From Candidatus Schekmanbacteria bacterium (GTDB lineage: Bacteria > SZUA-182): DNA of 64,000 nt. Shown here piece by piece: positions 1 through 57,288 of this stretch (position 1 is the first letter of the stretch; every line of letters starts with the position of its first letter). The position numbers were made by a program, and so were the translations under genes. The notes under the pieces were generated by a model that saw only the letters and a list, made by a program, of their open reading frames with translations, had not been told where the DNA came from and did not search any database. The stretch covers positions 1,779 through 65,778 of the forward strand of contig JACRJN010000131.1 in NCBI GenBank assembly GCA_016235675.1. Direction: 5' to 3'.

Positions 1-262
1 AAATAATATCCAGGACGCGCCGGATTTGGTGGTGGAGATAATTTCCGAAAGCAGTGTCTACCGGGATTCGGTAAGAAAAAAGAAGCTTTATGCCAAATTC
101 GGGGTCAAAGAATTTTGGCTGGTCGCTCCTGAAGAAAAAATGATTGAGGTTTATAATTTGGACAATCAGAGGTACCGTTTAAGCCAGACTTGTTTTTATA
201 ATGACAGCCTGGAATCTCAGGTTTTGAAAGGCTTCAGGATGGATTCGAAGGATATTTTTTAA
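1..262 (+). CDS. Uma2/DUF820 family putative endonuclease, 5'-truncated by the window edge
   Basis: C-terminal 78 aa are about 60% identical to the C-terminus of the complete Uma2-like ORF at 4772..5323. The reading frame is open to position 1. Confidence 0.6.
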   Translation, partial: NNIQDAPDLVVEIISESSVYRDSVRKKKLYAKFGVKEFWLVAPEEKMIEVYNLDNQRYRLSQTCFYNDSLESQVLKGFRMDSKDIF

Positions 263-359
263 ATCAATCACTATTCATTTGTCATGGTTTCGGCTTTTCT
301 CAAGCCAAACATCCTAACATGAGTTTTATACTCTTTTCGAATACTCCGGGGAATAAGTA

Positions 360-590
360 ATGAAAAATTTAACACGAATCACATTTGACCCCAATGTGAT
401 GGGCGGGAAGCCTTGTATCCGCGGATTACGCCTCACTGTTGGAACTATTGTCGGGCTGATTGCTACAGGATATTCCACTTCAGACATTTTGAAAGCATAT
501 CCTTATCTGGAAGAAGACGATATTCGCGAAGCACTTAAATACGCCGCCTGGCGAGTTGAAGAAATCGAATTACCCTTGGTACCCATATGA
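360..590 (+). CDS. DUF433 domain protein (antitoxin-like)
   Basis: 76 aa with a GGKPCIRGLRLTV motif typical of DUF433. ATGA overlap with the downstream gene. Confidence 0.6.
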   Translation: MKNLTRITFDPNVMGGKPCIRGLRLTVGTIVGLIATGYSTSDILKAYPYLEEDDIREALKYAAWRVEEIELPLVPI

Positions 591-949
591 AACTGCTGGT
601 TGATATGAATCTTTCTCCTATGTGGATTGAATTTTTCGAACAGCAAGGGTGGCAAGCACTTCATTGGTCAACAGTGGGTAACCCTCGTGCAACTGATATT
701 GCAATCATGGATTGGGCGCGGGAAAATGATTATGCGGTATTCACTCACGATCTTGATTTTGGAGCTTTGTTAGCGGCTACCAGCGCTGACAAACCTAGTG
801 TTATTCAGGTACGTACACAAGATATTATGCCCCATAGTTTAGGCCCCAAATTAGTAAAAATATTACGGCAATATGAATCAGTTCTTAATAATGGGGCATT
901 GCTAACTGTGGACGAAAACAAGTCCAGAGTGCGTATTCTACTTTTTTAG
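587..949 (+). CDS. DUF5615 (PIN-like) domain protein, putative toxin partner of DUF433
   Basis: 120 aa translationally coupled to the DUF433 ORF. DUF433-DUF5615 pairs are a recurrent two-gene module. Confidence 0.55.
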   Translation: MKLLVDMNLSPMWIEFFEQQGWQALHWSTVGNPRATDIAIMDWARENDYAVFTHDLDFGALLAATSADKPSVIQVRTQDIMPHSLGPKLVKILRQYESVLNNGALLTVDENKSRVRILLF

Positions 950-984
950 CAACCAGTAATCACATAATTTCTAGGATTAAACCT

Positions 985-2025
985 ATGATCAACATTTCTT
1001 ACTCCGATTTAAGCTCCGATCCCCGCTATGCCTTTGCAGTCGGGAAAATCAGGGCGCTGGAAACAAACCTGATCACCAATCAGCAGGTCAACCGCCTGCT
1101 GGAGACCAAAGACGCCAACGCTCTTTGGTCGGAATTGGGCAATAACCGGGATTACGAAGCGCATCTGGCCCAATTCTACGATCCCCAGGATTTCGAAGCG
1201 GTTTTAAGCAGCGAATTGAAAAGGGTCTACGCTTTAACCCTGGGGATTTCTGCTGAGCGCACCGCCTTGGAATTACTGGCTTTGCGCCATGATTTCCATA
1301 ACTGCAAGGTTATCTCCAAAGCGTGCTTTTTGGGCGAAGATACGGATAGCAATTTAAGCCCCTTAGGAACGTGTCCCCCCAAAGAATGGGAACAACTCAT
1401 GGTTGCAGAAAAAGAAGCCGGGCTGTGCCGGTTACCTGCCGATTTGATGCAGATTGTCCGTGATGTGCAACAACAGCTTATCGACGAACAAAACTTGCGC
1501 CGGCGGGACATAATCTGGGATCAGGCGCTTTATCAATACCTCTCCCGCCACGCCGAAAAATCGAAAAATCTGTTTGTGCAGACCTGGCTGAAAATTCGCA
1601 TCGACGGCCTCAATTTGCTGACATATGTGCGCTGTATCAGGCAAAAGTCGGATAAGGGATTATTGAAGCTGGCTTTAATTGACAGCGGCACGATAGCTTG
1701 TGAAAAATTGCAAAACGCCTACGAAGGCGGCTTGGAAACGCTGGCCTCCCTGCTCTCCCCTACTCCCTATGCGGGAATGATCCAGGAGGGGCTGGCCTGT
1801 TATAAGCGGGACAACTCCTTTTCCTGTCTGGAAAAACTGTTCGACGATTACGAGATGGAGTTTTTGTCGCAGGCGCGCTATGTCTCTTTGGGGGTGGAGC
1901 CGTTGTTTGCCTATTTATTGGCCAAGGAGACCGAGATCAAGGTCTTGCGCATCCTGCTGGTGGGCAAAATAAACCGCCTGGACAAGACGGAAATCAGTAA
2001 ACGGGTAAGGAGGCTTTATGCCTAA
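985..2025 (+). CDS. atpC: V/A-type ATP synthase subunit C
   Basis: 346 aa, about the expected size for V/A-type subunit C, placed immediately upstream of the F and A subunits in the conserved operon order. Confidence 0.8.
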   Translation: MINISYSDLSSDPRYAFAVGKIRALETNLITNQQVNRLLETKDANALWSELGNNRDYEAHLAQFYDPQDFEAVLSSELKRVYALTLGISAERTALELLALRHDFHNCKVISKACFLGEDTDSNLSPLGTCPPKEWEQLMVAEKEAGLCRLPADLMQIVRDVQQQLIDEQNLRRRDIIWDQALYQYLSRHAEKSKNLFVQTWLKIRIDGLNLLTYVRCIRQKSDKGLLKLALIDSGTIACEKLQNAYEGGLETLASLLSPTPYAGMIQEGLACYKRDNSFSCLEKLFDDYEMEFLSQARYVSLGVEPLFAYLLAKETEIKVLRILLVGKINRLDKTEISKRVRRLYA

Positions 2026-2350
2026 GATGGCGATTTTAGGAGAAAGGGACGCGATTTTGGGCTTCAAAGCCGTGGGAGTGAATGTTTTCCCCATCAAAAA
2101 CACCGATGAAGCGGAGGCGGTTTTGCGCAAACTGGCAATGGAAGACTATGCCGCGATCTTTGTCAGCGAGCGTTACGCCCAGGATTTGGAACTGCAAATC
2201 AAGGAGATCGAGCGCTCCGGCGGCATGTTTCCCAGTATCGTAATTATCCCCGGCCCCGGCGTAAATCAAGGGTTGGGAATGAATAAAATCAAAAACATGG
2301 TTGAGAAAGCCCTGGGTATGGCTATTCTTTCCACAGACGAAAAACAATGA
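2018..2350 (+). CDS. atpF: V/A-type ATP synthase subunit F
   Basis: 110 aa with an MAILGERDAILGFKAVGV N-terminus typical of V-type F. Overlaps atpC by 8 nt. Confidence 0.75.
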   Translation: MPKMAILGERDAILGFKAVGVNVFPIKNTDEAEAVLRKLAMEDYAAIFVSERYAQDLELQIKEIERSGGMFPSIVIIPGPGVNQGLGMNKIKNMVEKALGMAILSTDEKQ

Positions 2351-2360
2351 GGTTTGACAT

Positions 2361-4112
2361 ATGCAGGCAGGAAAAATAATCAAAGTGGCTGGCCCTTTGG
2401 TGGTTGCCGACGGCATGGTTGACGCCAAGATGTATGACGTGGTCAAAGTCGGCCTTGAGGAACTGATCGGCGAGATTGTGGAAATCAAAGGCGATAAAGC
2501 CTCGATTCAGGTCTACGAGGAAACGGGAGGCATCGGCCCCGGCGATCCGGTGATCACTACCGGTATGCCGCTTAGCGTCGAGTTAGGCCCCGGATTGCTG
2601 CAAAGCATTTACGACGGTATTCAGCGCCCGCTGGAATTGATCTACGGCAAGGTCGGGGATTTGATCACCCGCGGGGTTAACGTCCCCAGCCTGAATCGGG
2701 AAAAGAAATGGGCGTTTACTCCGACTGGCAAAACGGGTGATAAGGTGCAGGCCGGGGATATTTTGGGCACGCTGCCGGAAACCAGGGTTATTACCCATAA
2801 GGTGCTGGTTCCGCCCGGAATCGAGGGAGAGATCGTTAAGATTGCGGCAGGCGGCGAATACACCATTACCGATACCATCGCCCGCATTAAAACCAAAAAC
2901 GGTGAACAGGATATTTGTATGCTGCAAAAGTGGCCGGTGCGTATCAGCCGTCCCTTAAAGGGTAAGCTTTCGCCCAAAGAGCCGCTTTCCACCGGACAGC
3001 GCATTATCGACACCCTCTTTCCCCTGGCCAAGGGCGGAACGGCTTGTGTTCCCGGCCCCTTCGGTTCAGGCAAGACCGTAGTGCAGCATCAGTTGGCCAA
3101 ATGGGCATCTGCCGAGATTGTGGTTTATATCGGCTGCGGCGAGCGCGGCAACGAGATGACCGACGTTTTGATCGAACTGCCGGAGATCGAAGACCCCAGA
3201 ACCGGTGAATCGCTGATGCAGCGCACCGTTTTGATCGCCAACACCTCAAACATGCCGGTGGCCGCCCGTGAAGCCTCGGTCTATACCGGGATCACCCTGG
3301 CCGAATATTACCGCGATATGGGCTACCATGTGGCGCTGATGGCTGATTCCACCTCCCGCTGGGCGGAAGCCTTGCGCGAGATGTCGGGACGTCTGGAAGA
3401 GATGCCCGGAGAAGAAGGCTATCCGGCTTATCTGGCGACCAAGATCGCCGATTTCTACGAGCGCGCCGGTCGGGTCAACACCCTGGGCAGCAACGGCAGA
3501 GAGGGATCGATCAGCGTTATCGGAGCGGTTTCCCCTCCCGGCGGCGACATGTCCGACCCGGTGGTGCAGGCCACCCTCAAGGTGGTTAAGGTCTTCTGGG
3601 GGCTGGACGCCAATTTAGCCTACCGCCGGCATTTCCCCGCCATCAACTGGCTGCAAAGCTATTCACTGTATATGGACAACCTCAAGGATTACCTGACCGG
3701 AGAAATTGCCCGCGACTGGGTCACCATCCGCCAGAAAGCCATGGCGCTGTTACAGAAAGAGGCGGAACTGGAAGAAATCGTACGACTAATCGGCAAGGAC
3801 TCCCTCTCCCCTACCGATCAGCTAACCCTGGAAATCACCAAGATCATCCGCGAGGATTTTCTGCATCAGAACGCCTTCCACGCCCAGGACTCCTACACCT
3901 CGCTGAACAAGCAATATAACTTGCTGAAGCTGATTCTCACCGCCGAAGAACTGTTCCGCTCCGCAGTCGAAGCCAAAATTCCCTTAAAGCGCATCCTCTC
4001 CATCCCGGCCCTGGAAGAAATCGCCAAAGCCAAGTTTATCACCGAAGACAAACCGGAGGAGATCGAAGCCATCGGGCAGAGATTGAGGGAGCAGGTAGGG
4101 GGGTTGAAGTAA
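2361..4112 (+). CDS. atpA: V/A-type ATP synthase catalytic subunit A
   Basis: 583 aa with a Walker A motif GPFGSGKT and conserved A-subunit blocks (YIGCGERGNEM, SRWAEALRE). Confidence 0.95.
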   Translation: MQAGKIIKVAGPLVVADGMVDAKMYDVVKVGLEELIGEIVEIKGDKASIQVYEETGGIGPGDPVITTGMPLSVELGPGLLQSIYDGIQRPLELIYGKVGDLITRGVNVPSLNREKKWAFTPTGKTGDKVQAGDILGTLPETRVITHKVLVPPGIEGEIVKIAAGGEYTITDTIARIKTKNGEQDICMLQKWPVRISRPLKGKLSPKEPLSTGQRIIDTLFPLAKGGTACVPGPFGSGKTVVQHQLAKWASAEIVVYIGCGERGNEMTDVLIELPEIEDPRTGESLMQRTVLIANTSNMPVAAREASVYTGITLAEYYRDMGYHVALMADSTSRWAEALREMSGRLEEMPGEEGYPAYLATKIADFYERAGRVNTLGSNGREGSISVIGAVSPPGGDMSDPVVQATLKVVKVFWGLDANLAYRRHFPAINWLQSYSLYMDNLKDYLTGEIARDWVTIRQKAMALLQKEAELEEIVRLIGKDSLSPTDQLTLEITKIIREDFLHQNAFHAQDSYTSLNKQYNLLKLILTAEELFRSAVEAKIPLKRILSIPALEEIAKAKFITEDKPEEIEAIGQRLREQVGGLK

Positions 4113-4114
4113 CA

Positions 4115-4168
4115 TAGGGTAGGGTGGGCTGCGCCCACCATTTTGATGGGCACAGCCCACCCTACAGG
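4115..4168. repeat. REP-like palindromic element, family C (GTAGGGTGGGC...GCCCACCCTAC)
   Basis: Inverted repeat seen directly. Related copies at 4651..4742, 11952..12026 and 29225..29247. Confidence 0.8.
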
Positions 4169-4192
4169 CTACATGAAAAAAAGGGTTGCTTT

Positions 4193-4432
4193 GTGGAGAT
4201 AAATTTTTCTCGTCATGCCAAGAGAAGAGCCAGGTTATACAAAATCCCTGACTCAACAATTCTTAATCTTTTGGAATCGAAAATTTGGAACCAGGGAAAT
4301 CATGAGATTACAAAAATTGTTGCGGGGATTAAATACCCATTGAAAATTGTGTTTAATGTTGAAGACCATATTTTAACTGTAATAACTTGCTATCCTTTAA
4401 AAAAAGGAGCTAAGGGTGAAAGTATATTATGA
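4193..4432 (+). CDS. DUF4258 domain protein (RelE/ParE-fold toxin-like); probable GTG start
   Basis: The ORF frame continues upstream into a REP element, so a GTG at 4193 is the likely true start. HAKRRARLYKIP...ILTVITCYPLKK matches the DUF4258 signature. Overlaps the downstream DUF2283 gene. Confidence 0.5.
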   Translation: MEINFSRHAKRRARLYKIPDSTILNLLESKIWNQGNHEITKIVAGIKYPLKIVFNVEDHILTVITCYPLKKGAKGESIL

Positions 4433-4643
4433 CGACGAAGCAGACGCCCTTTATCTAAAATTGGGAGAAGAAACGCCGGAAGGGGTAATAGAGCTAGCCG
4501 AAGGGGTTAATCTGGACACCACTGCTGAAGATAAGATAGTAGGGATAGAAATTTTGAATGCCTCCAAGAAGATTGATTTAAAAACAATATTATCTTATAC
4601 CCTGGAGTTTGAAAAGGATTTAATAACCCAAGAAGCGGCCTGA
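4416..4643 (+). CDS. DUF2283 domain protein (antitoxin-like partner of DUF4258)
   Basis: 75 aa, MKVYYDDEADALYLKL...IVGIEIL typical of DUF2283. Overlaps the upstream gene. Confidence 0.55.
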   Translation: MKVYYDDEADALYLKLGEETPEGVIELAEGVNLDTTAEDKIVGIEILNASKKIDLKTILSYTLEFEKDLITQEAA

Positions 4644-4650
4644 TAGTAAC

Positions 4651-4742
4651 GTAGGGTGGGCTGTGCCCACCAAAGGCTAACCAGGGCAATTTGAACAGCG
4701 ACATATGGGCGAAAAACAAAAGGTTGGCAAAGCCCACCCTAC
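4651..4742. repeat. REP-like element, family C, with a 50-nt spacer
   Basis: GTAGGGTGGGCTGTGCCCACC ... GGCAAAGCCCACCCTAC. Confidence 0.8.
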
Positions 4743-4771
4743 ATAAATAAAACTCAAGGAGGTGAGCACCC

Positions 4772-5323
4772 ATGCAGGGTTTGGCGATAAAGCAAAAAAA
4801 ATATACTTATCAGGACTATTTAAAAACCCCGGACGATATGCGGTATGAACTAATTGAGGGAGATTTAATAATGACACCGGCGCCATATATTCGACACCAA
4901 AGAATTTCCAGTAACTTGTTTTTCAAGATGAGAGATTTCACAAGCACCAATAATTTAGGCGAGGTTTTTTACGCTCCCTGCGATGTCTACTTAGACGATG
5001 AGAATGTTGTTCAGCCGGATATACTCTTCGTTTCCAAGGAGCGTCTGGAAATTATCACGGAAAAGAATATCCAGGGTGCGCCGGATTTGGTAGTGGAAAT
5101 TGTTTCGGAAGGAAATGCTTACCGGGACACCATACAGAAAAAAAGACTATACGCCCGTTTCGGGGTGAAAGAATATTGGATAGTGGCACCGGGGGAAAAG
5201 ATGATCGAACAATATCATTTGAATAAGCAGGGTTACCAATTGATTAGGACTTATTATCATGAGGATCATCTCATATCCCAGGAATTGCAGGATTTCACGA
5301 TTGAATTGAGGGAGGTTTTTTAA
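4772..5323 (+). CDS. Uma2/DUF820 family putative endonuclease
   Basis: 183 aa with a restriction-endonuclease-like core (DLVVEIVSEGN...YARFGVKEYWIV). Good RBS AAGGAGG. Paralog of the partial ORF at 1..262. Confidence 0.7.
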   Translation: MQGLAIKQKKYTYQDYLKTPDDMRYELIEGDLIMTPAPYIRHQRISSNLFFKMRDFTSTNNLGEVFYAPCDVYLDDENVVQPDILFVSKERLEIITEKNIQGAPDLVVEIVSEGNAYRDTIQKKRLYARFGVKEYWIVAPGEKMIEQYHLNKQGYQLIRTYYHEDHLISQELQDFTIELREVF

Positions 5324-5327
5324 AAAA

Positions 5328-5387
5328 TGTAGTTACCTGATTTATCAGGGAACGGCCTGCTGGTACCCGATAAATCGGGTAACTACA
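5328..5387. repeat. REP-like element, family M (GTAGTTACCTGATTTATCAGG...CCCGATAAATCGGGTAACTAC)
   Basis: Second copy at 25116..25174. Confidence 0.8.
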
Positions 5388-5415
5388 AATGGCAGCATAA
5401 CACAGGAGGAATAAA

Positions 5416-6816
5416 ATGCCGAAAGAATACCGAACTGTGGCCTCGGTTTCCGGACCGTTGATTTTAGTGGACAAGGTAGAAAGCATTAAATACGAAGAAC
5501 TGGTGGAAGTGGAACTGCCCGGCGAACAAATCCGTCTGGGCAAGGTACTGGAGGTCTCAGGAAATACCGCCCTGGTGCAGCTTTTCGGTACATCTACCGG
5601 CATCAATATCTATCAGAGCAAAATTCGCTTTCTGGGCAAGGGGATTGAACTGGGGGTTTCTCCCGATTTATTGGGACGGATTTTCGACGGCCTGGGACGC
5701 CCGATCGACAATGGCCCGCGCATTATCCCGGAAAAACGCCTGAACATCAACGGGAATCCGATCAACCCCTATGCCCGCGATTATCCCTCGGAGTTTATCC
5801 AGACCGGTATTTCCACCATCGACGGCCTAAATACACTGGTGCGCGGACAAAAATTGCCCATCTTCTCAGGTGCCGGTCTCCCGCACTCCCAAATGGCGGC
5901 CCAAATCGCCCGTCAATCCAAGGTTTTGGGCAAGGAAGAAGCCTTTGCCGTGGTCTTTGCCGCCATGGGCATCACCTTTGAGGAATACGAGTTTTTCCGC
6001 CAAGATTTCCAGAAATCCGGTGCGCTGGAACGCTCGGTGCTGTTCGTCAATCTGGCCAATGACCCGGCGGTAGAACGCATCGCCACCCCGCGAATGGCCC
6101 TGACCGCCGCTGAATATCTGGCATTTGAGAAGGATATGCACGTTCTGGTTATCTTAACCGATCTGACCAATTATTGCGAAGCCCTGCGCGAGGTTTCCGC
6201 CGCCCGCAAGGAAATACCCGGTCGCCGCGGTTATCCCGGTTACATGTATACCGACCTGTCCACGATTTATGAACGCGCCGGACGCATCAAGGGCAAAAAG
6301 GGATCGATCACCCAGATTCCCATTCTTACCATGCCGGAAGATGACAAAACCCATCCCATCCCGGATTTGACCGGTTATATTACCGAGGGACAAATTATCC
6401 TGGGACGGGCGATGCACCGCAAAGGCATCTATCCCCCAATCGATGTCTTGCCGTGTCTTTCCCGCTTGCGGGATAAAGGCATCGGCGAGGGCAAGACCAG
6501 GGAAGACCACGCCGGCTGGTCGAATCAATTGTTTGCCGCCTATGCCAGGGGTAAAGAGTCTGAAGAATTGGCGGTTATATTGGGTGAATCGGCTCTATCG
6601 GCAGCCGATAAAACCTTCCTTAAATTCGCCCTGGAATTTGAGCGGCGGTTTGTACAGCAAGGGGCCTATGAAGACCGGGCTATCGAGGAAACTTTGGCTA
6701 TCGGCTGGGAATTAATGGCGGCACTTCCGAAAGCCGAACTCAAACGGGTGAAAGAGGATCATATCGCTAAATATATGCCGGCGGGGAAAGAATTAGGCTT
6801 GAGGCTTGAGGCCTGA
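5416..6816 (+). CDS. atpB: V/A-type ATP synthase regulatory subunit B
   Basis: 466 aa with conserved B-subunit blocks throughout. The last codons and the stop lie inside a GGCTTGAGG tandem repeat. Confidence 0.95.
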
Positions 6817-6921
6817 GGCTTGAGTAATGAGATTTGAGGTAAAATCACAGGCAGGATGCCTGTGCTACCGTAGGGCGAATTTGTATTCGCCCTCTTTCCC
6901 TCAAGCCTCAAGTCTCAAGCC
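6796..6921. repeat. composite element between convergent atpB and the PHP gene
   Basis: (GGCTTGAGG)n and (CCTCAAGCC)n outer arms enclose a family-D half REP (CACAGGCAGGATGCCTGTGCTACC) and a GTAGGGCGAATTTGTATTCGCCCTC hairpin. Confidence 0.8.
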
Positions 6922-7571
6922 TTTTTATTACAGCGATGAACCAAATTTCGGGCATTAACCCAAATTTGCTCTATCTGGGACTCGGTCAGCCCTGCGCCGA
7001 TGGCTACTTTAATGGCTTGTTCCTGCGAAATGAGGTCATCCGGTTCATGAGAGTCGGTATCAAGTATTAAAGAAGCATCTGATTTTGCGGCCAACTTGGC
7101 CACATGGCCGTTTGTCAGGGAATGTCCCTTACGGCTGGTAATTTCCAGAAAAATATGACGCTTTGCCGCCAAACGGACGTCTTCTTCGCTGATCAAACCC
7201 GGATGCGCCAATATATCGATGTCGGATTTTAAGGCATAATGATTGGTGCCAGGAACAACCGGCTCGGCTATGGTTTCCCCATGGACAACGATAATTTTAG
7301 CGCCCAGGGAGCGGGCACGGTACGCCAGATCGGGGATGAGCTTAGGCGGAACATGCGTTAATTCTATGCCGGGGATAGCGGTTATTTCCCAATGCTGATT
7401 AGCGGTTTGACAGGCTTGAATAATACGCGGGATTACAAATTCCAGGTTGGACGGATCGGCATGATCGGTCAAAGCGATGGCTTTATAGCCTTTAACGACG
7501 GCGTGGCGTATCAATTCCATCGGAAGGAGAACGCCGTCACTGAACAAAGAATGGGTATGAAAATCAAACAT
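6915..7571 (-). CDS. PHP-domain metal-dependent phosphoesterase
   Basis: 218 aa with an MFDFHTHSLFSDG N-terminal His motif and later conserved His/Asp positions of the PHP family. Confidence 0.7.
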   Translation of the reverse strand: MFDFHTHSLFSDGVLLPMELIRHAVVKGYKAIALTDHADPSNLEFVIPRIIQACQTANQHWEITAIPGIELTHVPPKLIPDLAYRARSLGAKIIVVHGETIAEPVVPGTNHYALKSDIDILAHPGLISEEDVRLAAKRHIFLEITSRKGHSLTNGHVAKLAAKSDASLILDTDSHEPDDLISQEQAIKVAIGAGLTESQIEQIWVNARNLVHRCNKKA

Positions 7572-7573
7572 GT

Positions 7574-7942
7574 CTATTGAGCTAACTTAACGGTAACATT
7601 TTCAAAACGAGTCATCAATTCTTTCGCTTCCTGCATAAAACTATTCAATAAAGCGTCGCTGCAACATTGCTTACTTCTCAATTCATCACATAATTTACTG
7701 TTATCTAAATACAAGGTGATATTATTCGCGCCCATCCCCTTAGCCCTTCTTAAGGCAACTAAAAGCGCACAGGAATCCTGAATATCTTTGTTAGCCAAGG
7801 TAGCATTTTCCCGGATAATGCTCAAAAGGTTATCTTCATCATCTTTAACCATTACTTCAACGTAGCCGCGTGAATAGGGTTTTATCTGCTTTTGGCCATT
7901 TACAAATAAAATTAAGTGATTAAATCCCGCCATAGCCCTCAC
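7574..7942 (-). CDS. RNase H-like fold protein (RVT_3-like), probably catalytically degenerate
   Basis: 122 aa. Its beta1-alphaA pattern (HLILFVNGQ...DSCALLVALRRAKGMG...LYLDNSKL) resembles RNase HI/RVT_3, but the first catalytic Asp is Asn and the C-terminal Asp is missing. The gap to the downstream PHP gene is 2 nt. Confidence 0.35.
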   Translation of the reverse strand: MRAMAGFNHLILFVNGQKQIKPYSRGYVEVMVKDDEDNLLSIIRENATLANKDIQDSCALLVALRRAKGMGANNITLYLDNSKLCDELRSKQCCSDALLNSFMQEAKELMTRFENVTVKLAQ

Positions 7943-8043
7943 CGCCTTTTTAAACCCAATTAAATTATAGCATCTTACTATTTAAAATGCAATTGAAGTA
8001 GTTTGTAAAATGTATCGCAGATAACACAAAGAAAAATAATATT

Positions 8044-8184
8044 TTGGTAGCGTTCTCAATAAGAGACCTAAAGCGTCAAAAGCGAGGCAGCCTTATCGCC
8101 GAAGCAATCTCATGTGCACGCATGGAGATTGCTTCGCTTCGCTCGCAATGACGCTTCAGGTCTGCGGTATTTCTACGCTACCAA
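8044..8184. repeat. long family-E element (GGTAGCGTTCTCAAT...GTCATTGCGAG-like core...CGCTACCAA)
   Basis: Near-identical copy at 60141..60310. Shorter E cores at 9114..9183, 33191..33290, 34497..34595, 40988..41067 and 50099..50180. Confidence 0.8.
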
Positions 8185-8250
8185 TAATTTTACACTAAAC
8201 AGTCATGCTCCTTCAGAACGACACAAAACATGAAAACATTCCCCCCTGCC

Positions 8251-8315
8251 GTAGTGCCGGGGCTTTAGCCCCGGTAGTTCAGCCCTGAAGGGCTGGAACT
8301 ACGAAACTACGAAAC
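8251..8315. repeat. REP-like element, family B (GTAGTSCCRGSSCTTTAGSSC...)
   Basis: Copies at 14451..14614, 26971..27032, 42620..42688, 51453..51598, 59990..60058, 61451..61506 and 62168..62222. Confidence 0.8.
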
Positions 8316-8335
8316 ACAAACAGGCATTTAGCCTT

Positions 8336-9049
8336 TTATTTCTTCGTCTCCCCCTTTGCCGGTTCCATTTTTTTAATCCACTGTTTTATTTCTTCAGCTT
8401 GGGGAGAATTCGGTTCCAACTCTAAAAATTTTTGAAAATAAAAAACCGCTTTTTCCGGCTGGGATAATTTCTTGGCGTAGATTGTCCCCAGGTTAAAATA
8501 GGCATCGGAGGAATCGTACACCTCTAATACTTTTGAGTAATATTCGACGGCTTTTGCATAATCGCCGCTTACGGCTGCAATATTCCCTTGTTTCAGTAGT
8601 TGCATCATTGTATCGAGGGTTTCCTGACTCAAATCGTTTATCATCCGGCTTGTTTTCGCGGATTGAGGGTTATTGGTCGACAAATCATAAATTTTTTCTT
8701 TATCCAGGTATAATTTTATTTCCTTAATCCATTGGCGTACATGAGGAGTATCTGTATCGAAGGGTTTTAACTGGAGAAATTTTTCATAATAAAAAAGTGC
8801 CCTTTTGCGATCCTGGATATTAATCTCATAAGTCACCCCCAAATTAAACACGGCATCGATCGAATTATAACCGACAAAGGCTTTTTCATAGGCAGCGACG
8901 GCCTCCTGATAATTACCCTCTTCGCAAGCTTTATTCCCCTCTAAAACAAGCTGCGTCCCCGGATCATAACTTTCTTGTGCCGAAGCGATAGAATTTATAA
9001 GTAATATCGGGAAAAAGACGATAAATAAAATTGACGCTTTAAATCTCAT
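8336..9049 (-). CDS. secreted TPR-repeat protein
   Basis: Signal peptide (MRFKASILFIVFFPILLINSIASA) followed by repeated AxxYxKAxxxxxxxDAxFNLG TPR-like units. Confidence 0.6.
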   Translation of the reverse strand: MRFKASILFIVFFPILLINSIASAQESYDPGTQLVLEGNKACEEGNYQEAVAAYEKAFVGYNSIDAVFNLGVTYEINIQDRKRALFYYEKFLQLKPFDTDTPHVRQWIKEIKLYLDKEKIYDLSTNNPQSAKTSRMINDLSQETLDTMMQLLKQGNIAAVSGDYAKAVEYYSKVLEVYDSSDAYFNLGTIYAKKLSQPEKAVFYFQKFLELEPNSPQAEEIKQWIKKMEPAKGETKK

Positions 9050-9225
9050 TGCTAAACTCCACTTAGTACGCGATTTTATAAATAACTAAGATTATTTTTT
9101 AAGTGTCATTGCGAGCTTAAGCGAAGCAATCTCTACCCATGCGTCTGAGATTGCTTCGGCGATAAGGCTGCCTCGCTTTTGACAGAATAAACTCAGTTAG
9201 TTATAAAATCGTGTATTAGTTACTT

Positions 9226-9287
9226 CCGAGATACGAGGTATGAAAACTAACTCTTCCGTATCTCGTACCTCGTATCTCGTATCTCGG
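9226..9287. repeat. family-G element (CCGAGATACGAGGTA...TACCTCGTATCTCGG)
   Basis: Second copy at 20293..20355. Confidence 0.75.
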
Positions 9288-9290
9288 TAT

Positions 9291-20287: not shown

Positions 20288-20484
20288 GCTAAAACCGAGA
20301 TACGAGGTACGAGATACGTAGAAAAGCATTTTCGTATCTCGTATCTCGTGCCTCGGTAATTGAGGCACTTTTCTTGCAGTAACATTGCTAACTATAAATT
20401 AACGGTACAGGCTTGTAACGGGGGGCTGGTTTTTTTCGAGCCTCGCAAGCCTGGAAACAGCAAATTTCAAACAGGAGGTTCGGA

Positions 20485-21573: not shown

Positions 21574-21593
21574 ATAGGGGCGAAAATTCTATT

Positions 21594-21813
21594 AAGACGT
21601 AGCGCAGGGCTTTAGCCCCAATACTGTTCCCCTAACGTAGCGCAGACCTTTAGGTCTGCTCCGGAGTGCTCACAAAGCCACCCCATAAGCAGGGATAGAA
21701 GCCCTGCGCTACGTCTTAAGTGAACGGTATTGGCTTTAGCCCTGCTTCCGGACACACATCAAACCCGGTAGCCGGTAGCAGACCTAAAGGTCTGCACTAC
21801 GTTAGGGGAACAG
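21594..21813. repeat. nested family-A REP cluster downstream of fbp
   Basis: Four A-type half sites arranged as two nested inverted pairs with GTTCCCCTAACGTAG outer arms. Confidence 0.8.
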
Positions 21814-25086: not shown

Positions 25087-25181
25087 AATGCCCCCTTTTA
25101 AAGACTGTGCCGCAATGTAGTTACCTGATTTATCAGGTACGACCCGTGGTACCCGATAAATCGGGTAACTACAATTACCCA

Positions 25182-29068: not shown

Positions 29069-29247
29069 GTAGGGTGGACACACAGAACGGTAGCACAGGC
29101 ATCTTGCCTGTGATGTGGGCAACGCCCACACAAAAACGGTGCAATGACTGGAAGTTGTTGGGTAAATCGAAAGCTTCCATTCTATGCCGCAACACACAGG
29201 CTGGAAGCCTGTGCTACCCTACCCAATGGTGGGCACAGCCCACCCTA
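29069..29247. repeat. C/D mosaic REP cluster between the acetyltransferase and sugar-transferase genes
   Basis: GTAGGGTGGACAC...GGTAGCACAGGCATCTTGCCTGTG...CACAGGCTGGAAGCCTGTGCTACC...GGTGGGCACAGCCCACCCTAC. Confidence 0.8.
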
Positions 29248-29870: not shown

Positions 29871-29948
29871 GGTAGCACAGGCTTCCCATCCTGTGACACA
29901 GGCAAGATGCCTGTGCTACCGGAGGCAGGGATAAAGCCCTGCGCTACG
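29871..29948. repeat. family-D REP pair plus a family-A half site
   Basis: GGTAGCACAGGCTTCCCATCCTGTG / CACAGGCAAGATGCCTGTGCTACC / GCAGGGATAAAGCCCTGCGCTAC. A similar D+A unit lies at 35867..35943. Confidence 0.8.
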
Positions 29949-35851: not shown

Positions 35852-37412
35852 CTAACTTCCTTCTTTGGTAGCACAGGCTGGAAGCACATGACACAGGCTG
35901 GAAGCCTGTGTTACCGGATGCAGGGCTGAAGCCCTGCGCTACACTTTTTTGCCTCCCGGTTAAAAGCCTCCCTTTAGCTTTAACAGTAATTCCGGCCATG
36001 ATCCAAAAATAAGCCGTTAATTCATTGGAAAAAAAGCGCGCTCCCGATAAATCCAATAAAAACAGGGCGATGACACAACCCAGTAGCCCGCCGGCCAGCG
36101 CCTTAATGTAGGGATCGTCCGTCTGGCGCATTACCTGCCGGGCACTAAAAAAAACAGCCGCCAAAATCCATAAATACAAAATTAACCCGACGATTCCTTC
36201 CTCGACTGCAATCCAAATAAACGAACTATGAGCCGCTTTGGGAAACGGAAGCACCCCACATCTGACCACCACTTCCTGGAATGTTTCAAAACCCGTACCC
36301 AAGATGGGGGCTTCGGCCATCATCCGCGGCAATCCTTTCCACTGGCGTAGCCTCAATTCTGTGGAATTATCGTATTGCTGATTTTCATATTTTCCCTGCA
36401 CCCCTTCTTCCAGAAAGGTATCGTCTACCCGTTCTTCTACCGCCGGCGGCGGATGCACCAAGATCACAACTAAAGCCAACAACATAAATAAAAGCAGGCG
36501 CTTATCTTTAACCAGTCCCAGGAACAAAAGACTGGCCAAACAGGCCAGCCAGGAACCGCGGGATAAGGTGGTAAACAAGGCCAGAAAACATAAACCGGTA
36601 CCCGCTAAAAGCAGGTAATGCCGTTTGGAGGGCAGTTTCAGATATAAAGAGCAAATAAATAGCGGGGTATACATAGCCAGAAAGCCGCCATATAAATTAG
36701 GCTGATCCCCGATTACCCCGCCTCCGTTTCTGTTCCGCTCGATATAATCCGCTATTCGAAAAAAATCTTTTAACGAAAGTATTACGATAATTCCGATCGT
36801 TACTAAAAGAAAAATCAACAAACGGCGGCTATAATGCAAATCGTAAGATTTTAAGGTGATGAAATATAAAGAAACATAAATAAGCCAATTTTTAGCGACA
36901 CTTAAGCGTTCAACATCCGAACAATACGCGGAAGGCATCCTGAAAATGGATAATAAAGTAAAAAATACAAGCAGATAAACAGGTATTTTTAACGGATCGC
37001 ATCTCGAATTTTCTTGCGGCTGCTTTTGGGAAAACACGCCAAGAAATAAAATGGCCACAATAATAGTTTGGGCGTTTATTCCGGTTATGCCGAAAAAATC
37101 AGGGGGAAAGAGGTCTAAAATCGGCATAAAAAAGATAAAAAAACAAACCGCTAAATCGATTCTTACAAAGGCCAAATAAGTCCAAAAAATACCCAGGGAA
37201 AACCCTAAGAAAATCTTTACCGGATAATAAGGCAAAAATATCGCGCAAATTACCGCCGCCACAAGAACCGATAAACTTGTTTTTTCAAACCGATCAACCG
37301 AAGAGACATCAGATTTGCCGGATGTTTCGGTTGGATTTAAATAATTTAATTGATACACAGGTGAAGTGTCCACAACTTTCCTCAGTGCTATGAAATACGA
37401 CAAAACTCCCAT
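35760..37412 (-). CDS. O-antigen ligase/Wzy-like polymerase family membrane protein
   Basis: Polytopic membrane protein with the Wzy_C-like segment LFTTLSRGSWLA. The C-terminus reads through a REP element into the next gene's 5' end, so the listed stop is probably not the ancestral one. Confidence 0.6.
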   Translation of the reverse strand: MGVLSYFIALRKVVDTSPVYQLNYLNPTETSGKSDVSSVDRFEKTSLSVLVAAVICAIFLPYYPVKIFLGFSLGIFWTYLAFVRIDLAVCFFIFFMPILDLFPPDFFGITGINAQTIIVAILFLGVFSQKQPQENSRCDPLKIPVYLLVFFTLLSIFRMPSAYCSDVERLSVAKNWLIYVSLYFITLKSYDLHYSRRLLIFLLVTIGIIVILSLKDFFRIADYIERNRNGGGVIGDQPNLYGGFLAMYTPLFICSLYLKLPSKRHYLLLAGTGLCFLALFTTLSRGSWLACLASLLFLGLVKDKRLLLFMLLALVVILVHPPPAVEERVDDTFLEEGVQGKYENQQYDNSTELRLRQWKGLPRMMAEAPILGTGFETFQEVVVRCGVLPFPKAAHSSFIWIAVEEGIVGLILYLWILAAVFFSARQVMRQTDDPYIKALAGGLLGCVIALFLLDLSGARFFSNELTAYFWIMAGITVKAKGRLLTGRQKSVAQGFSPASGNTGFQPVSCASSLCYQRRKLDGKTKDSLYQHISGIGIYSAGDAGISQSGN

Positions 37413-42544: not shown

Positions 42545-42688
42545 GTTGTCAGTTGTCAGTTGTCGGTTTTAATTCTTTAACTGACAACCGACAACTGACA
42601 ACTTTTTTTCATCACCAGCCGTAGTCCCAGCCCTTTAGGGCTGAATTTCCGGGGCTAAAGCCCCGGCACTACGGCTACGGCTACGGCT
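42545..42688. repeat. family-I palindrome (GTTGTCAGTTGTCGG...CCGACAACTGACAAC) followed by a family-B REP
   Basis: I-like copies at 41075..41100, 52935..52993, 55307..55383 and 61507..61548. Confidence 0.75.
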
Positions 42689-43446: not shown

Positions 43447-43586
43447 TGTTTTCTCAAATTAAAAGCCGGGCAAAATGTAGCGTTGGGGTTTATCCCCAAC
43501 ATTGCGGACGCAGGAGATACCCCTACGTAAAAAGCGGGGGATAAACCCCCGCGCTACTTTAAAAAATCTTGGTGTGAATTATTTCC

Positions 43587-45866: not shown

Positions 45867-46103
45867 ATGATTATTAAAAAAAATATTCAAAAGGAAACAT
45901 CGTTGGAATTGCCTTGGCATTTATTAGAAAAAGCCCATCTTAAGGGGAAAATAAATATTATTGTGGAAGAAAATGAAATCCTGATTAAAAAACAAACTAA
46001 AAAATCTAAGGTTGTCGATGAAATGATCGGTCTGGGAAAGGGTATTTTTAGTGAAAACTCGCTAACTCTTCAGAAAAAAATTCGGGAGGATTGGAAACTG
46101 TGA
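45867..46103 (+). CDS. AbrB/SpoVT-like antitoxin (VapB-like)
   Basis: 78 aa overlapping the downstream PIN gene by 13 nt. Low GC. Confidence 0.45.
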   Translation: MIIKKNIQKETSLELPWHLLEKAHLKGKINIIVEENEILIKKQTKKSKVVDEMIGLGKGIFSENSLTLQKKIREDWKL

Positions 46104-46531
46104 AAAGAATTGGTCTCGATACCAATATTTTTATGAGCGTTTTTTTGGAAGAAAAGGGGAAATTAGAAGCTTGCCTGGCGATTTTACAAAATATTCATGA
46201 CGGTATTCTGGAAGGGATTATCAGTGTAATTACATTAGTAGAAATAGCCGTACTTTTTTACCAAAAAAATGAATATCTAAAAGCTAAGAAAGCCTTATCC
46301 CTTATCAACTCTCTTTCAAATATTGCCATTATTGACATAACTCCACATTTGGCTTTAAAAATAGCTGCTATAAAAACTTCAGATAAATTATCTGTTGCGG
46401 ATGCAATTATTCTTGCCACAGCGGTACACGCATCTGCGGAAGCTTTTTTAACGTATGACCATGACTTTGCCAAAGTAAAAACCATCAGGTGCATTAAACC
46501 GGAAGATTATCTTCAAGAGATGAATATTTGA
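46091..46531 (+). CDS. PIN-domain ribonuclease toxin (VapC-like)
   Basis: Acidic PIN residues are in place (LDTNIF, ...E..., DAIILATA, TYDHDF). Confidence 0.75.
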   Translation: METVKRIGLDTNIFMSVFLEEKGKLEACLAILQNIHDGILEGIISVITLVEIAVLFYQKNEYLKAKKALSLINSLSNIAIIDITPHLALKIAAIKTSDKLSVADAIILATAVHASAEAFLTYDHDFAKVKTIRCIKPEDYLQEMNI

Positions 46532-52928: not shown

Positions 52929-53005
52929 AAAATCGTTGACGGTTGACGATTGTCGGTTATTATTTTTTTAACTGACAACTGACAACCGTCAACAGAAATA
53001 TTACC

Positions 53006-57138: not shown

Positions 57139-57260
57139 TTCACTTAAGACGTAGCGCAGGGCTTTAGCCCTGCTTATGGCGGCTTTGGTAGGCACTCCGG
57201 AGCAGACCTAAAGGTCTGCTCTACGTTAAGTGAACAGTCTGCGCTACGTTAAGTGAACAG
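57139..57260. repeat. family-A REP element with duplicated GTTAAGTGAACAG arm
   Basis: GTTCACTTAAGACGTAGCGCAGGGCTTTAGCCCTGC...GCAGACCTAAAGGTCTGCTCTACGTTAAGTGAACAG. Confidence 0.8.
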
Positions 57261-57288
57261 TATTGGGATTAAGGAGGGGTTTGGGGGA

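Follow-up and report, generated by a model that had tools for sequence, protein, structure and literature searches.

Organisation of the interrupted operon

The DNA analysed here is a 64,000-nt stretch (the window) from a metagenome-assembled genome of Candidatus Schekmanbacteria, and it opens with the distal part of a V/A-type ATPase operon that is interrupted by small foreign genes. All ten genes between positions 1 and 6816 lie on the plus strand, as judged from the list of open reading frames (ORFs) and from Pfam matches (Table 1). The atpC, atpF and atpA genes are contiguous, and the adjacency of atpA and atpB is broken by 1,303 nt (4113-5415) that hold three genes. In order, the A-B interval consists of an inverted doublet of repetitive extragenic palindromic (REP) sequences, a DUF4258-type gene, a DUF2283 gene, a second REP doublet, a complete Uma2 gene and a third REP doublet. 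Another Uma2 gene and a DUF433-DUF5615 pair stand directly upstream of atpC. An earlier note on this DNA had described the contiguity of atpC, atpF and atpA, the placing of atpB behind a 1.3-kb insert, and the second Uma2 gene with its DUF433/DUF5615 neighbours upstream of atpC, and the ORF and Pfam assignments bear out all three. Its inventory of the insert is right as to gene order, while the label DUF4258 fails on the direct score of the protein and holds through its homologs only.

The A and B subunits carry the alpha/beta nucleotide-binding domain and are accompanied by subunits C(d) and F, which places the enzyme in the V/A type. P0001, the protein identical to AtpB of the window, has an NCBI name that gives a Candidatus Schekmanbacteria metagenome-assembled genome and is encoded on a contig of 65,938 nt. 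The atpB gene has its own AGGAGG ribosome-binding site, and the last ~20 nt upstream of it resemble the empty junction of L081, a close relative described below. No atpI, atpK or atpE was found within the 64 kb by tblastn; the window starts inside the upstream cassette, and the source contig has at most 1.9 kb of further sequence. At the other end of the operon, the outer arms of the composite palindrome are GGCTTGAGG-type simple repeats around two nested hairpins, one of them of the GTAGCACAGGC REP type. The palindrome faces the end of a minus-strand PHP gene and has a T/U-run downstream, and it is likely to be a two-way terminator that closes the operon. The PHP-family phosphatase gene (PRK06361, E 1.4e-94) and then a 122-aa RNase H-like (RVT_3) gene lie on the minus strand at 6915-7942, both converging on the end of the atp operon.

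Table 1. Features of the atp region of the window (coordinates in nt)
Feature	Position	Strand	Evidence and remarks
Uma2/DUF820, 3' part, 86 codons	1-262	+	Pfam E 4e-17, 62.7 bits (cut-off 27); ORF listed as 2-262
DUF433 (COG2442), predicted DNA-binding antitoxin	360-590	+	Pfam E 2e-24, 85.6 bits; GC3 0.39
DUF5615, PIN-like predicted toxin	587-949	+	Pfam E 2.4e-24, 85.7 bits; GC3 0.34
atpC (V/A-ATPase subunit C/d)	985-2025	+	Pfam vATP-synt_AC39 E 1.2e-52
atpF (subunit F)	2018-2350	+	8-nt overlap with atpC; Pfam ATP-synt_F E 6.8e-19
atpA (catalytic subunit A)	2361-4112	+	four Pfam domains, best E 8.4e-76; GC3 0.70
REPIN-like GTAGGGTGGGC inverted doublet	4119-4165		6 nt past atpA stop; fold -39.6 kcal/mol, z -6.3
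Divergent DUF4258-type protein, 79 aa, predicted toxin	4193-4432	+	GTG start; GC3 0.29
DUF2283 protein, presumed antitoxin partner	4416-4643	+	Pfam E 2e-16; 17-nt overlap with preceding gene; own AGGAG ribosome-binding site
Second GTAGGGTGGGC REP doublet	4651-4742		50-nt spacer; fold -41.9 kcal/mol, z -4.9
Complete Uma2/DUF820 gene, 183 aa	4772-5323	+	Pfam E 5.6e-36, 124.1 bits (cut-off 27); strong AAGGAGGTGA ribosome-binding site
REPIN-like GTAGTTACC doublet	5329-5386		fold -34.5 kcal/mol, z -7.8; second copy at 25117-25172
atpB (subunit B)	5416-6816	+	Pfam best E 1.8e-79; 100% identical to P0001
Composite palindrome	6788-6929		overlaps atpB stop; CCTTTTTATT downstream; fold -72.3 kcal/mol, z -8.4

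The inserted genes differ from the operon in composition. The GC content falls from ~0.56 to ~0.40 within the A-B insert, and the GC content at third codon positions (GC3) is 0.29-0.51 in the cassette genes as compared to 0.60-0.70 in the atp genes and 0.49-0.70 in other core genes. Such an AT-rich composition would fit mobile DNA of an accessory kind. Individual ribosome-binding sites were present for each cassette gene and for atpB, and promoter-like sites were not enriched (10 against 8.4 expected).

Two of the cassettes are predicted toxin-antitoxin-type pairs, DUF433 with DUF5615 and the DUF4258-type gene with DUF2283, and the two Uma2 genes are solitary. Among the type II toxin-antitoxin classes predicted by Makarova et al. 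(2009; PMC2701414) are PIN-COG2442(DUF433) and MNT-HEPN, and the upstream pair has the arrangement of the former, with a small DNA-binding gene upstream of, and overlapping, a PIN-type nuclease gene; the stop of DUF433 and the start of DUF5615 share an ATGA (587-590). The DUF5615 gene scored 21.4 bits against PIN_10, under the cut-off of 26.2. In the A-B insert, the DUF4258-type ORF most likely starts at GTG 4193, giving 79 aa, and not at 4124. It had no Pfam match at E 0.01; read from GTG 4193, it aligned with positions 1-70 of the 71 of the DUF4258 profile (PF14076) at 15.3 bits and E 0.025, the threshold being 25. A search of 1.84 billion representative proteins returned 197 homologs, mostly of ~75 aa and aligned from residue 1, and PF14076 was matched by 48 of 60 homologs (best E 7.9e-9). 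The AlphaFold2 model (predicted local distance difference test score 93.6) was compared with the PDB by Foldseek, and the top 20 matches were all RelE/YoeB/YafQ/HigB/ParE toxins, at weak values (E 0.009-0.5, template modelling score 0.41-0.61). The protein is a predicted toxin with a putative RelE/ParE-like fold. None of the six cassette proteins had an NCBIfam name, and the literature searched contained no paper naming DUF4258 together with DUF2283 and nothing relevant on DUF433 with DUF5615.

The product of the Uma2 gene in the A-B insert is identical to P0405, a Candidatus Schekmanbacteria protein that carries the NCBI name Uma2 family endonuclease. The upstream fragment corresponds to residues 98-183 of P0466 (100% identical); since P0466 is an intact 183-aa Uma2 encoded on the same source contig, the gene is cut by the window edge only. 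The two copies share 56-61% identity, and ~60 proteins of other organisms outscore the paralog in comparisons with the A-B copy. The recent duplication that the earlier note had proposed to look for is thus not what the sequences suggest: the two are, on this evidence, old paralogs or separate arrivals.

Outside the atp region, the remaining ~58 kb of the window contain a single VapBC-like pair, and cassettes are thus rare there. This pair (45867-46531), the one clear toxin-antitoxin-type pair of the window besides those described above, consists of a 78-aa ORF and an overlapping gene with a PIN domain (E 1.5e-17), the latter being very AT-rich (GC3 0.29). On the minus strand, four small ORFs at 62282-63827 (106, 70, 89 and 100 aa, no Pfam match) may form another small-gene cassette region.

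The same junctions in related operons

The atp genes were placed by tblastn in 170 related loci. The background consisted of 159 operons from many phyla, with AtpB 69-80% identical, which were taken from genome-collection and metagenome scans (AtpB at most 80% identical), whereas the close relatives, with AtpB 81-90% identical, came from a protein search and contig look-ups. The latter fall into operon lineages I-IV, numbered from the AtpB tree. The canonical order of the bacterial V/A-type ATPase operon is I-K-E-C-F-A-B-D, as in the ntp operon of Enterococcus hirae and the atp operon of Thermus, and this order was seen in L001, L003-L005, L170 and L172. In the background operons, the median gap was 16 nt at A-B and -1 nt at E-C, and the largest gaps at these junctions were 278 nt and 195 nt, respectively. 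No gap exceeded 300 nt at K-E, E-C, C-F, F-A or A-B, and no gene was found at A-B (0/159) or at E-C (0/111). The adjacency of A and B, which the earlier note had taken to be normal in such operons, is therefore the rule, and the window is a true exception to it.

By comparison, genes lie between atpA and atpB in six of the eight close loci in which both are visible, from two lineages, against 0/159 in the background (Fisher p = 1e-9). Lineage I, to which the window belongs, also includes L081 (= L082), with an uninterrupted E-C-F-A-B and no atpD, and L083. The last, a ninth close locus and the closest relative (AtpB 90% identical), has three foreign genes before atpB, namely a gene for 151 aa, a gene for a REP-associated tyrosine transposase (RAYT) and a DUF5677 gene, each flanked by GTAGGTTGGGTT REP pairs. 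The transposase gene (1093-1635 of that locus; NF047646, 198 bits, cut-off 80) lies ~1 kb upstream of atpB. In lineage IV, both junctions are occupied in L084, which reads E-(DUF4258 + zinc ribbon)-C-F-A-(MNT)-B, and in L167, which reads E-(MNT+HEPN)-C-F-A-(HEPN+MNT)-B. The A-B junction holds DUF6036 and a 59-aa gene in L085, genes for 79 aa and 76 aa in L169, and ~10 small genes including PIN, HEPN, MNT and DUF6036 over 4.9 kb in L168. The remaining member, L086, has no insert and reads G-I-K-E-C-F-A-B, G being a small gene that precedes atpI. Lineage II is represented by L170, which comes from a Nitrospinota genome, and by L172; both keep the complete I-K-E-C-F-A-B-D order and have no insert.

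The cargo differs from one group to another. In an all-against-all comparison, L084, L085, L167, L168 and L169 shared homologous HEPN-MNT and DUF6036-partner units at 45-80% identity, and relics of such units were recovered by tblastn: the first 21 codons of DUF6036 in L167, a broken DUF6036 in L169 and a 27-codon relic of the small partner in L084. The window cassettes showed no homology to those of lineage IV or of L083, and the DUF4258-type protein of the window showed no similarity to the DUF4258 protein of L084 in direct comparison. Given that the window cassettes share nothing with either group, at least three independent colonisations of the A-B junction (the window, L083 and lineage IV) are indicated by the sequences. 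At the other junction, three different cargoes were found, in the window (upstream of atpC), L084 and L167. All of the ~32 inserted genes, in ~15 units, are co-oriented with the operon, which has a chance probability of ~3e-5, and the first cassette in L167 and L084 begins 4-6 nt past the atpA stop. The earlier note had called the operon a hotspot for small-gene cassettes, and the differing toxin-antitoxin-type genes of the close relatives at A-B and E-C agree with it; the synteny comparison it had proposed shows that the same genes are not conserved, that the content differs and that two relatives have none.

Even where these junctions are empty, they are not of the usual kind: the A-B spacers of the insert-free operons in lineages I, II and IV measure 49-176 nt, against the background median of 16 nt. 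A tree of AtpA, AtpB and AtpF grouped lineages I, II and IV in 199/200 bootstraps, and I with II in 166/200, so that atpD-less, cassette-bearing operons flank lineage II, which keeps atpD and has no cassettes. Because this state is found on both sides of a lineage free of it, either it arose twice or it reflects the host genomes.

The atpD gene followed atpB in 117/119 background loci with room for it. In the window it was absent from all 64 kb, as searched by tblastn and with an AtpD profile hidden Markov model (HMM; E <= 1), and a search for AtpD homologs gave no match named Schekmanbacteria. None of the nine close loci, in two lineages, had atpD after atpB within up to 10 kb (profile HMM, E <= 1), including two without insert. 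Since the insert-free relatives lack the gene as well, its absence appears to be a trait of the whole lineage and not a consequence of the cassettes. The earlier note was right that atpD does not follow atpB, but a reading of the missing gene as an effect of the cassettes finds no support, as the normally split operon that the note had itself named as an alternative is what the close loci have in common.

Several further features of these loci were recorded. In L170, which contains atpD and no cassettes, unusually long spacers occur at both hot junctions, of 176 nt at A-B (9824-10001, with a GC-rich palindrome) and of 216 nt at E-C (6491-6708). In L168, where the A-B island spans 5128-10001, there is also a gap of 430 nt between atpF and atpA, and, in place of atpE, an AAA_23/AAA_15 ATPase gene and a gene for 295 aa (1-1593), possibly a defence system, stand before atpC. 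Lineage IV has a third variable junction, downstream of a tRNA synthetase gene that follows atpB, where the small genes, which are RelE-like, PIN, DUF4325 or unknown, vary from genome to genome (L085, 13058-13931; L167, 11064-13172; L086, 11537-13073).

Origin and persistence of the island

REP elements are a conspicuous component of the A-B insert, and they are found well beyond it. By strict criteria, the window contains 10 GTAG doublets, all but one outside long ORFs, as compared to 0.35 in shuffled sequences, and 3 of the 10 lie in the A-B insert. The GTAGGGTGGGC REPs gave 8 matches against 0.64 expected and the GTAGTTACC REPs 4 against 0.08. Both types recur between ordinary genes, at 11952-12024 and 25117-25172, and GTAG-headed palindromes of several families occupy ~20 intergenic regions; the REP population of this genome is unusually diverse. 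Over the 64 kb examined, the three doublets of the insert are inverted, multi-copy and intergenic, as are REPINs (REP doublets forming hairpins). They fold at -34 to -42 kcal/mol (z -4.9 to -7.8), and no U-run follows them except at a weak half-site past atpA. No RAYT gene was found in the 64-kb window, and an Rfam scan gave only chance hairpin matches to microRNA models. Only the A-B insert is REP-bounded: no REP lies in the spacers that border the upstream cassette (263-359 and 950-984), so the earlier note's description of REP-bounded cassettes applies to the former and fails for the latter.

One explanation is that a RAYT moved REP-flanked gene segments into the operon. It would account for the REP doublets that separate the units of the window insert, and for L083, where a genuine RAYT is one of three genes that are each flanked by REP pairs. 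On the other hand, the cassettes of L085, L167 and L169 have no palindromes or REPs and those of L084 a single palindrome, the Uma2 and DUF433/DUF5615 cassettes upstream of atpC are REP-free, the same doublets and other REP-like palindromes stand between ordinary genes, and the window has no such transposase gene. In published work (Bertels & Rainey 2011, PMC3116915; PMC3337134), moreover, REPINs are described as short non-coding mobile units, not as gene carriers. We consider transposition of this kind an improbable source of the island as a whole, even if a RAYT may have played a role in lineage I, given the copy in L083. Since REP-free cassettes and cassette-free doublets both occur, the REPs form a separate layer, independent of the cassettes, and settle in new spacers rather than serve as the cassette vehicle, and the claim of the earlier note that the cassettes travel with REPs is not upheld.

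The co-oriented, apparently promoterless small genes, each followed by an imperfect palindrome, could also recall an integron-like array, in which attC-bounded cassettes were caught by an integron integrase elsewhere, and toxin-antitoxin genes are typical cargo of chromosomal integrons. The palindromes read GTAG...CTAC without the attC cores RYYYAAC/GTTRRRY, however, and they stand between ordinary core genes but not in the cassettes of the relatives; no integrase was present among the genes scanned, which were those of positions 1-8 kb. This origin is even less credible to us than the already very doubtful view that the small genes serve the ATPase of this lineage as accessory or regulatory components and were kept for its assembly or regulation. 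That view can invoke the co-orientation and tight packing of the genes, their individual ribosome-binding sites and the persistence of the A-B island throughout lineage IV, yet the content is wholly different in the window, L083 and lineage IV and is missing from two relatives, members decay to relics, the families are typical toxin-antitoxin or nuclease families of many phyla, and the genes are AT-rich, unlike the atp genes. To a misjoin of an AT-rich 1.3-kb segment at REP repeats during assembly we give the least weight of all. The source is metagenome-assembled, REPs are repeated and the GC content drops in the insert, but the REP arms are only ~20-25 nt long, and beyond the insert the contig resumes the operon with the correct gene order and orientation and with an intact atpB ribosome-binding site, which makes a chimera very unlikely. 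In addition, six independent assemblies of relatives carry the same kind of insertion at the same junction.

The explanation that we regard as probable is that the distal half of the V/A-ATPase operon, at the A-B junction and at the junction upstream of atpC (E-C in relatives), has been colonised by small AT-rich selfish genes. Because even the empty junctions have long spacers, atpA and atpB are probably uncoupled translationally in these lineages and the junction tolerant of insertion, so that DNA might land there harmlessly if the ribosome-binding site of atpB is retained. Survival would be limited to insertions in the orientation of the operon, as they leave read-through transcription to atpB intact. 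The start of cassettes 4-6 nt after the upstream stop in relatives implies that they have no promoter of their own; promoterless cassettes could ride on the transcription of the operon and would need none. Once established, the cassettes would persist, plausibly through toxin-antitoxin addiction, and would accrete, decay and be replaced, giving rise to a long-lived small island. The REP doublets would belong to a separate, genome-wide REPIN-type population that settles in the new spacers and may tune mRNA stability. The operon would end at the strong palindromic terminator after atpB, and atpD would have to be encoded elsewhere, as in the close relatives.

Several points weigh against colonisation by selfish genes. 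The host genomes may be very rich in such cassettes, and such an effect of the host lineage is inseparable from one specific to the operon. The recurrence in lineage IV is in large part one inherited ancestral island with later turnover, which leaves probably three or four independent colonisations of the A-B junction. Uma2 genes are no established toxin-antitoxin or selfish elements, and the DUF4258-type model matches the structures of RelE/ParE toxins only weakly. The window showed no transposase, no target duplication and, among the genes scanned in 1-8 kb, no integrase, and the first half of the doublet behind atpA is a weak terminator-like site that might reduce read-through.

A different reading of the same data is that the island is functionally tied to the operon, either as an addiction device guarding a horizontally mobile, dispensable operon against deletion or as a sensor, whose unstable antitoxins would depend on continuous transcription of the operon and which would release toxins when host transcription is shut off, for example by a phage. 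We hold such a tie to be unlikely. If it existed, the pattern of islands and atpD loss in the two lineages would point to a common loosening or re-wiring of the operon, and the stalk of the enzyme might be arranged differently.

Apart from the types discussed above, at least three further GTAG-headed REP families (GTAGCGCAGGGC, GTAGCACAGGC and GTAGCGTTGGGG), forming doublets or clusters, are present in intergenic regions elsewhere in the window (16001-16110, 16891-16946, 21587-21800 and 59850-59927; 29090-29217, 29872-29919 and 35868-35914; 19168-19248 and 43474-43560). Palindromes of short tandem motifs (GAGATACGAGGTA, GTTGTCAGTTGTCAG) lie at gene ends (9219-9294, 20294-20357, 42545-42602 and 52935-52993) and are possibly terminator-like repeats. 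Another gene of the window, at 57253-58773, encodes a 506-aa protein with paired CXXCH motifs and a weak match to the DmsE decaheme cytochrome, suggesting extracellular or periplasmic electron transfer.

Comparison with known systems

The literature searched contained nothing on toxin-antitoxin islands in a V/A-ATPase operon or on bacterial V/A operons without atpD. Multi-subunit operons are usually treated as closed units, and here the junction between catalytic-subunit genes seems to have stayed open to selfish genes across a lineage. It may thereby offer a natural system for asking whether promoterless toxin-antitoxin modules live off the transcription of a host operon, and it could be used to test whether such modules stabilise horizontally acquired operons. 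Lost translational coupling and a retained downstream ribosome-binding site are candidates for what makes a junction tolerant of insertion. The analysis also flags a group of bacterial V/A-ATPases without atpD in the operon, for which the location of the stalk gene is worth checking, and annotators or pathway-completeness tools that expect A-B-D adjacency will misjudge such operons.

As compared to the canonical V/A operon, the window agrees in the order and orientation of C, F, A and B, with A and B proteins 69-90% identical to those of relatives, but A and B are split by 1.3 kb of foreign genes, other foreign genes precede atpC, and atpD is missing from the 64 kb. The upstream pair resembles type II toxin-antitoxin modules in having DUF433 upstream of an overlapping PIN-like gene, in its AT-richness and in its patchy distribution (PMC2701414), and relatives hold HEPN/MNT and PIN pairs at the same site. 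Unlike the usual modules of this type, the pairs are embedded, in the same orientation, in the operon of a multi-subunit enzyme.

The GTAG-headed inverted doublets, with their short spacer, several families, multiple copies and intergenic position, are like REPINs as described in PMC3116915 and PMC3337134. The REP-flanked transposase before atpB in L083 recalls REP/RAYT systems, with a REP family other than those of the window. The window itself differs from REPIN systems in having no transposase and in that three doublets punctuate a gene island inside an operon.

Differing cargo at the same junction, with gain, loss and relics, is also seen in variable islands and integration hotspots such as defence islands and flexible genomic islets. 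Here, in contrast, the flanks are two catalytic-subunit genes of one operon, the cargo of 0.6-4.9 kb is strictly co-oriented, and there is no tRNA target and, among the genes scanned in 1-8 kb, no integrase. Sedentary integron arrays and integrase-less attC clusters share with the island the co-oriented promoterless small genes, often toxin-antitoxin pairs, with palindromes between them; unlike attC sites, the palindromes of the window are REPs, which also lie between ordinary genes and are missing from the cassettes of the relatives. The components, namely toxin-antitoxin modules, Uma2 genes and REPINs, are known, and it is their context that is new: a recurrent and long-lived island, co-oriented with the operon, that separates the genes for the catalytic subunits of a rotary ATPase.

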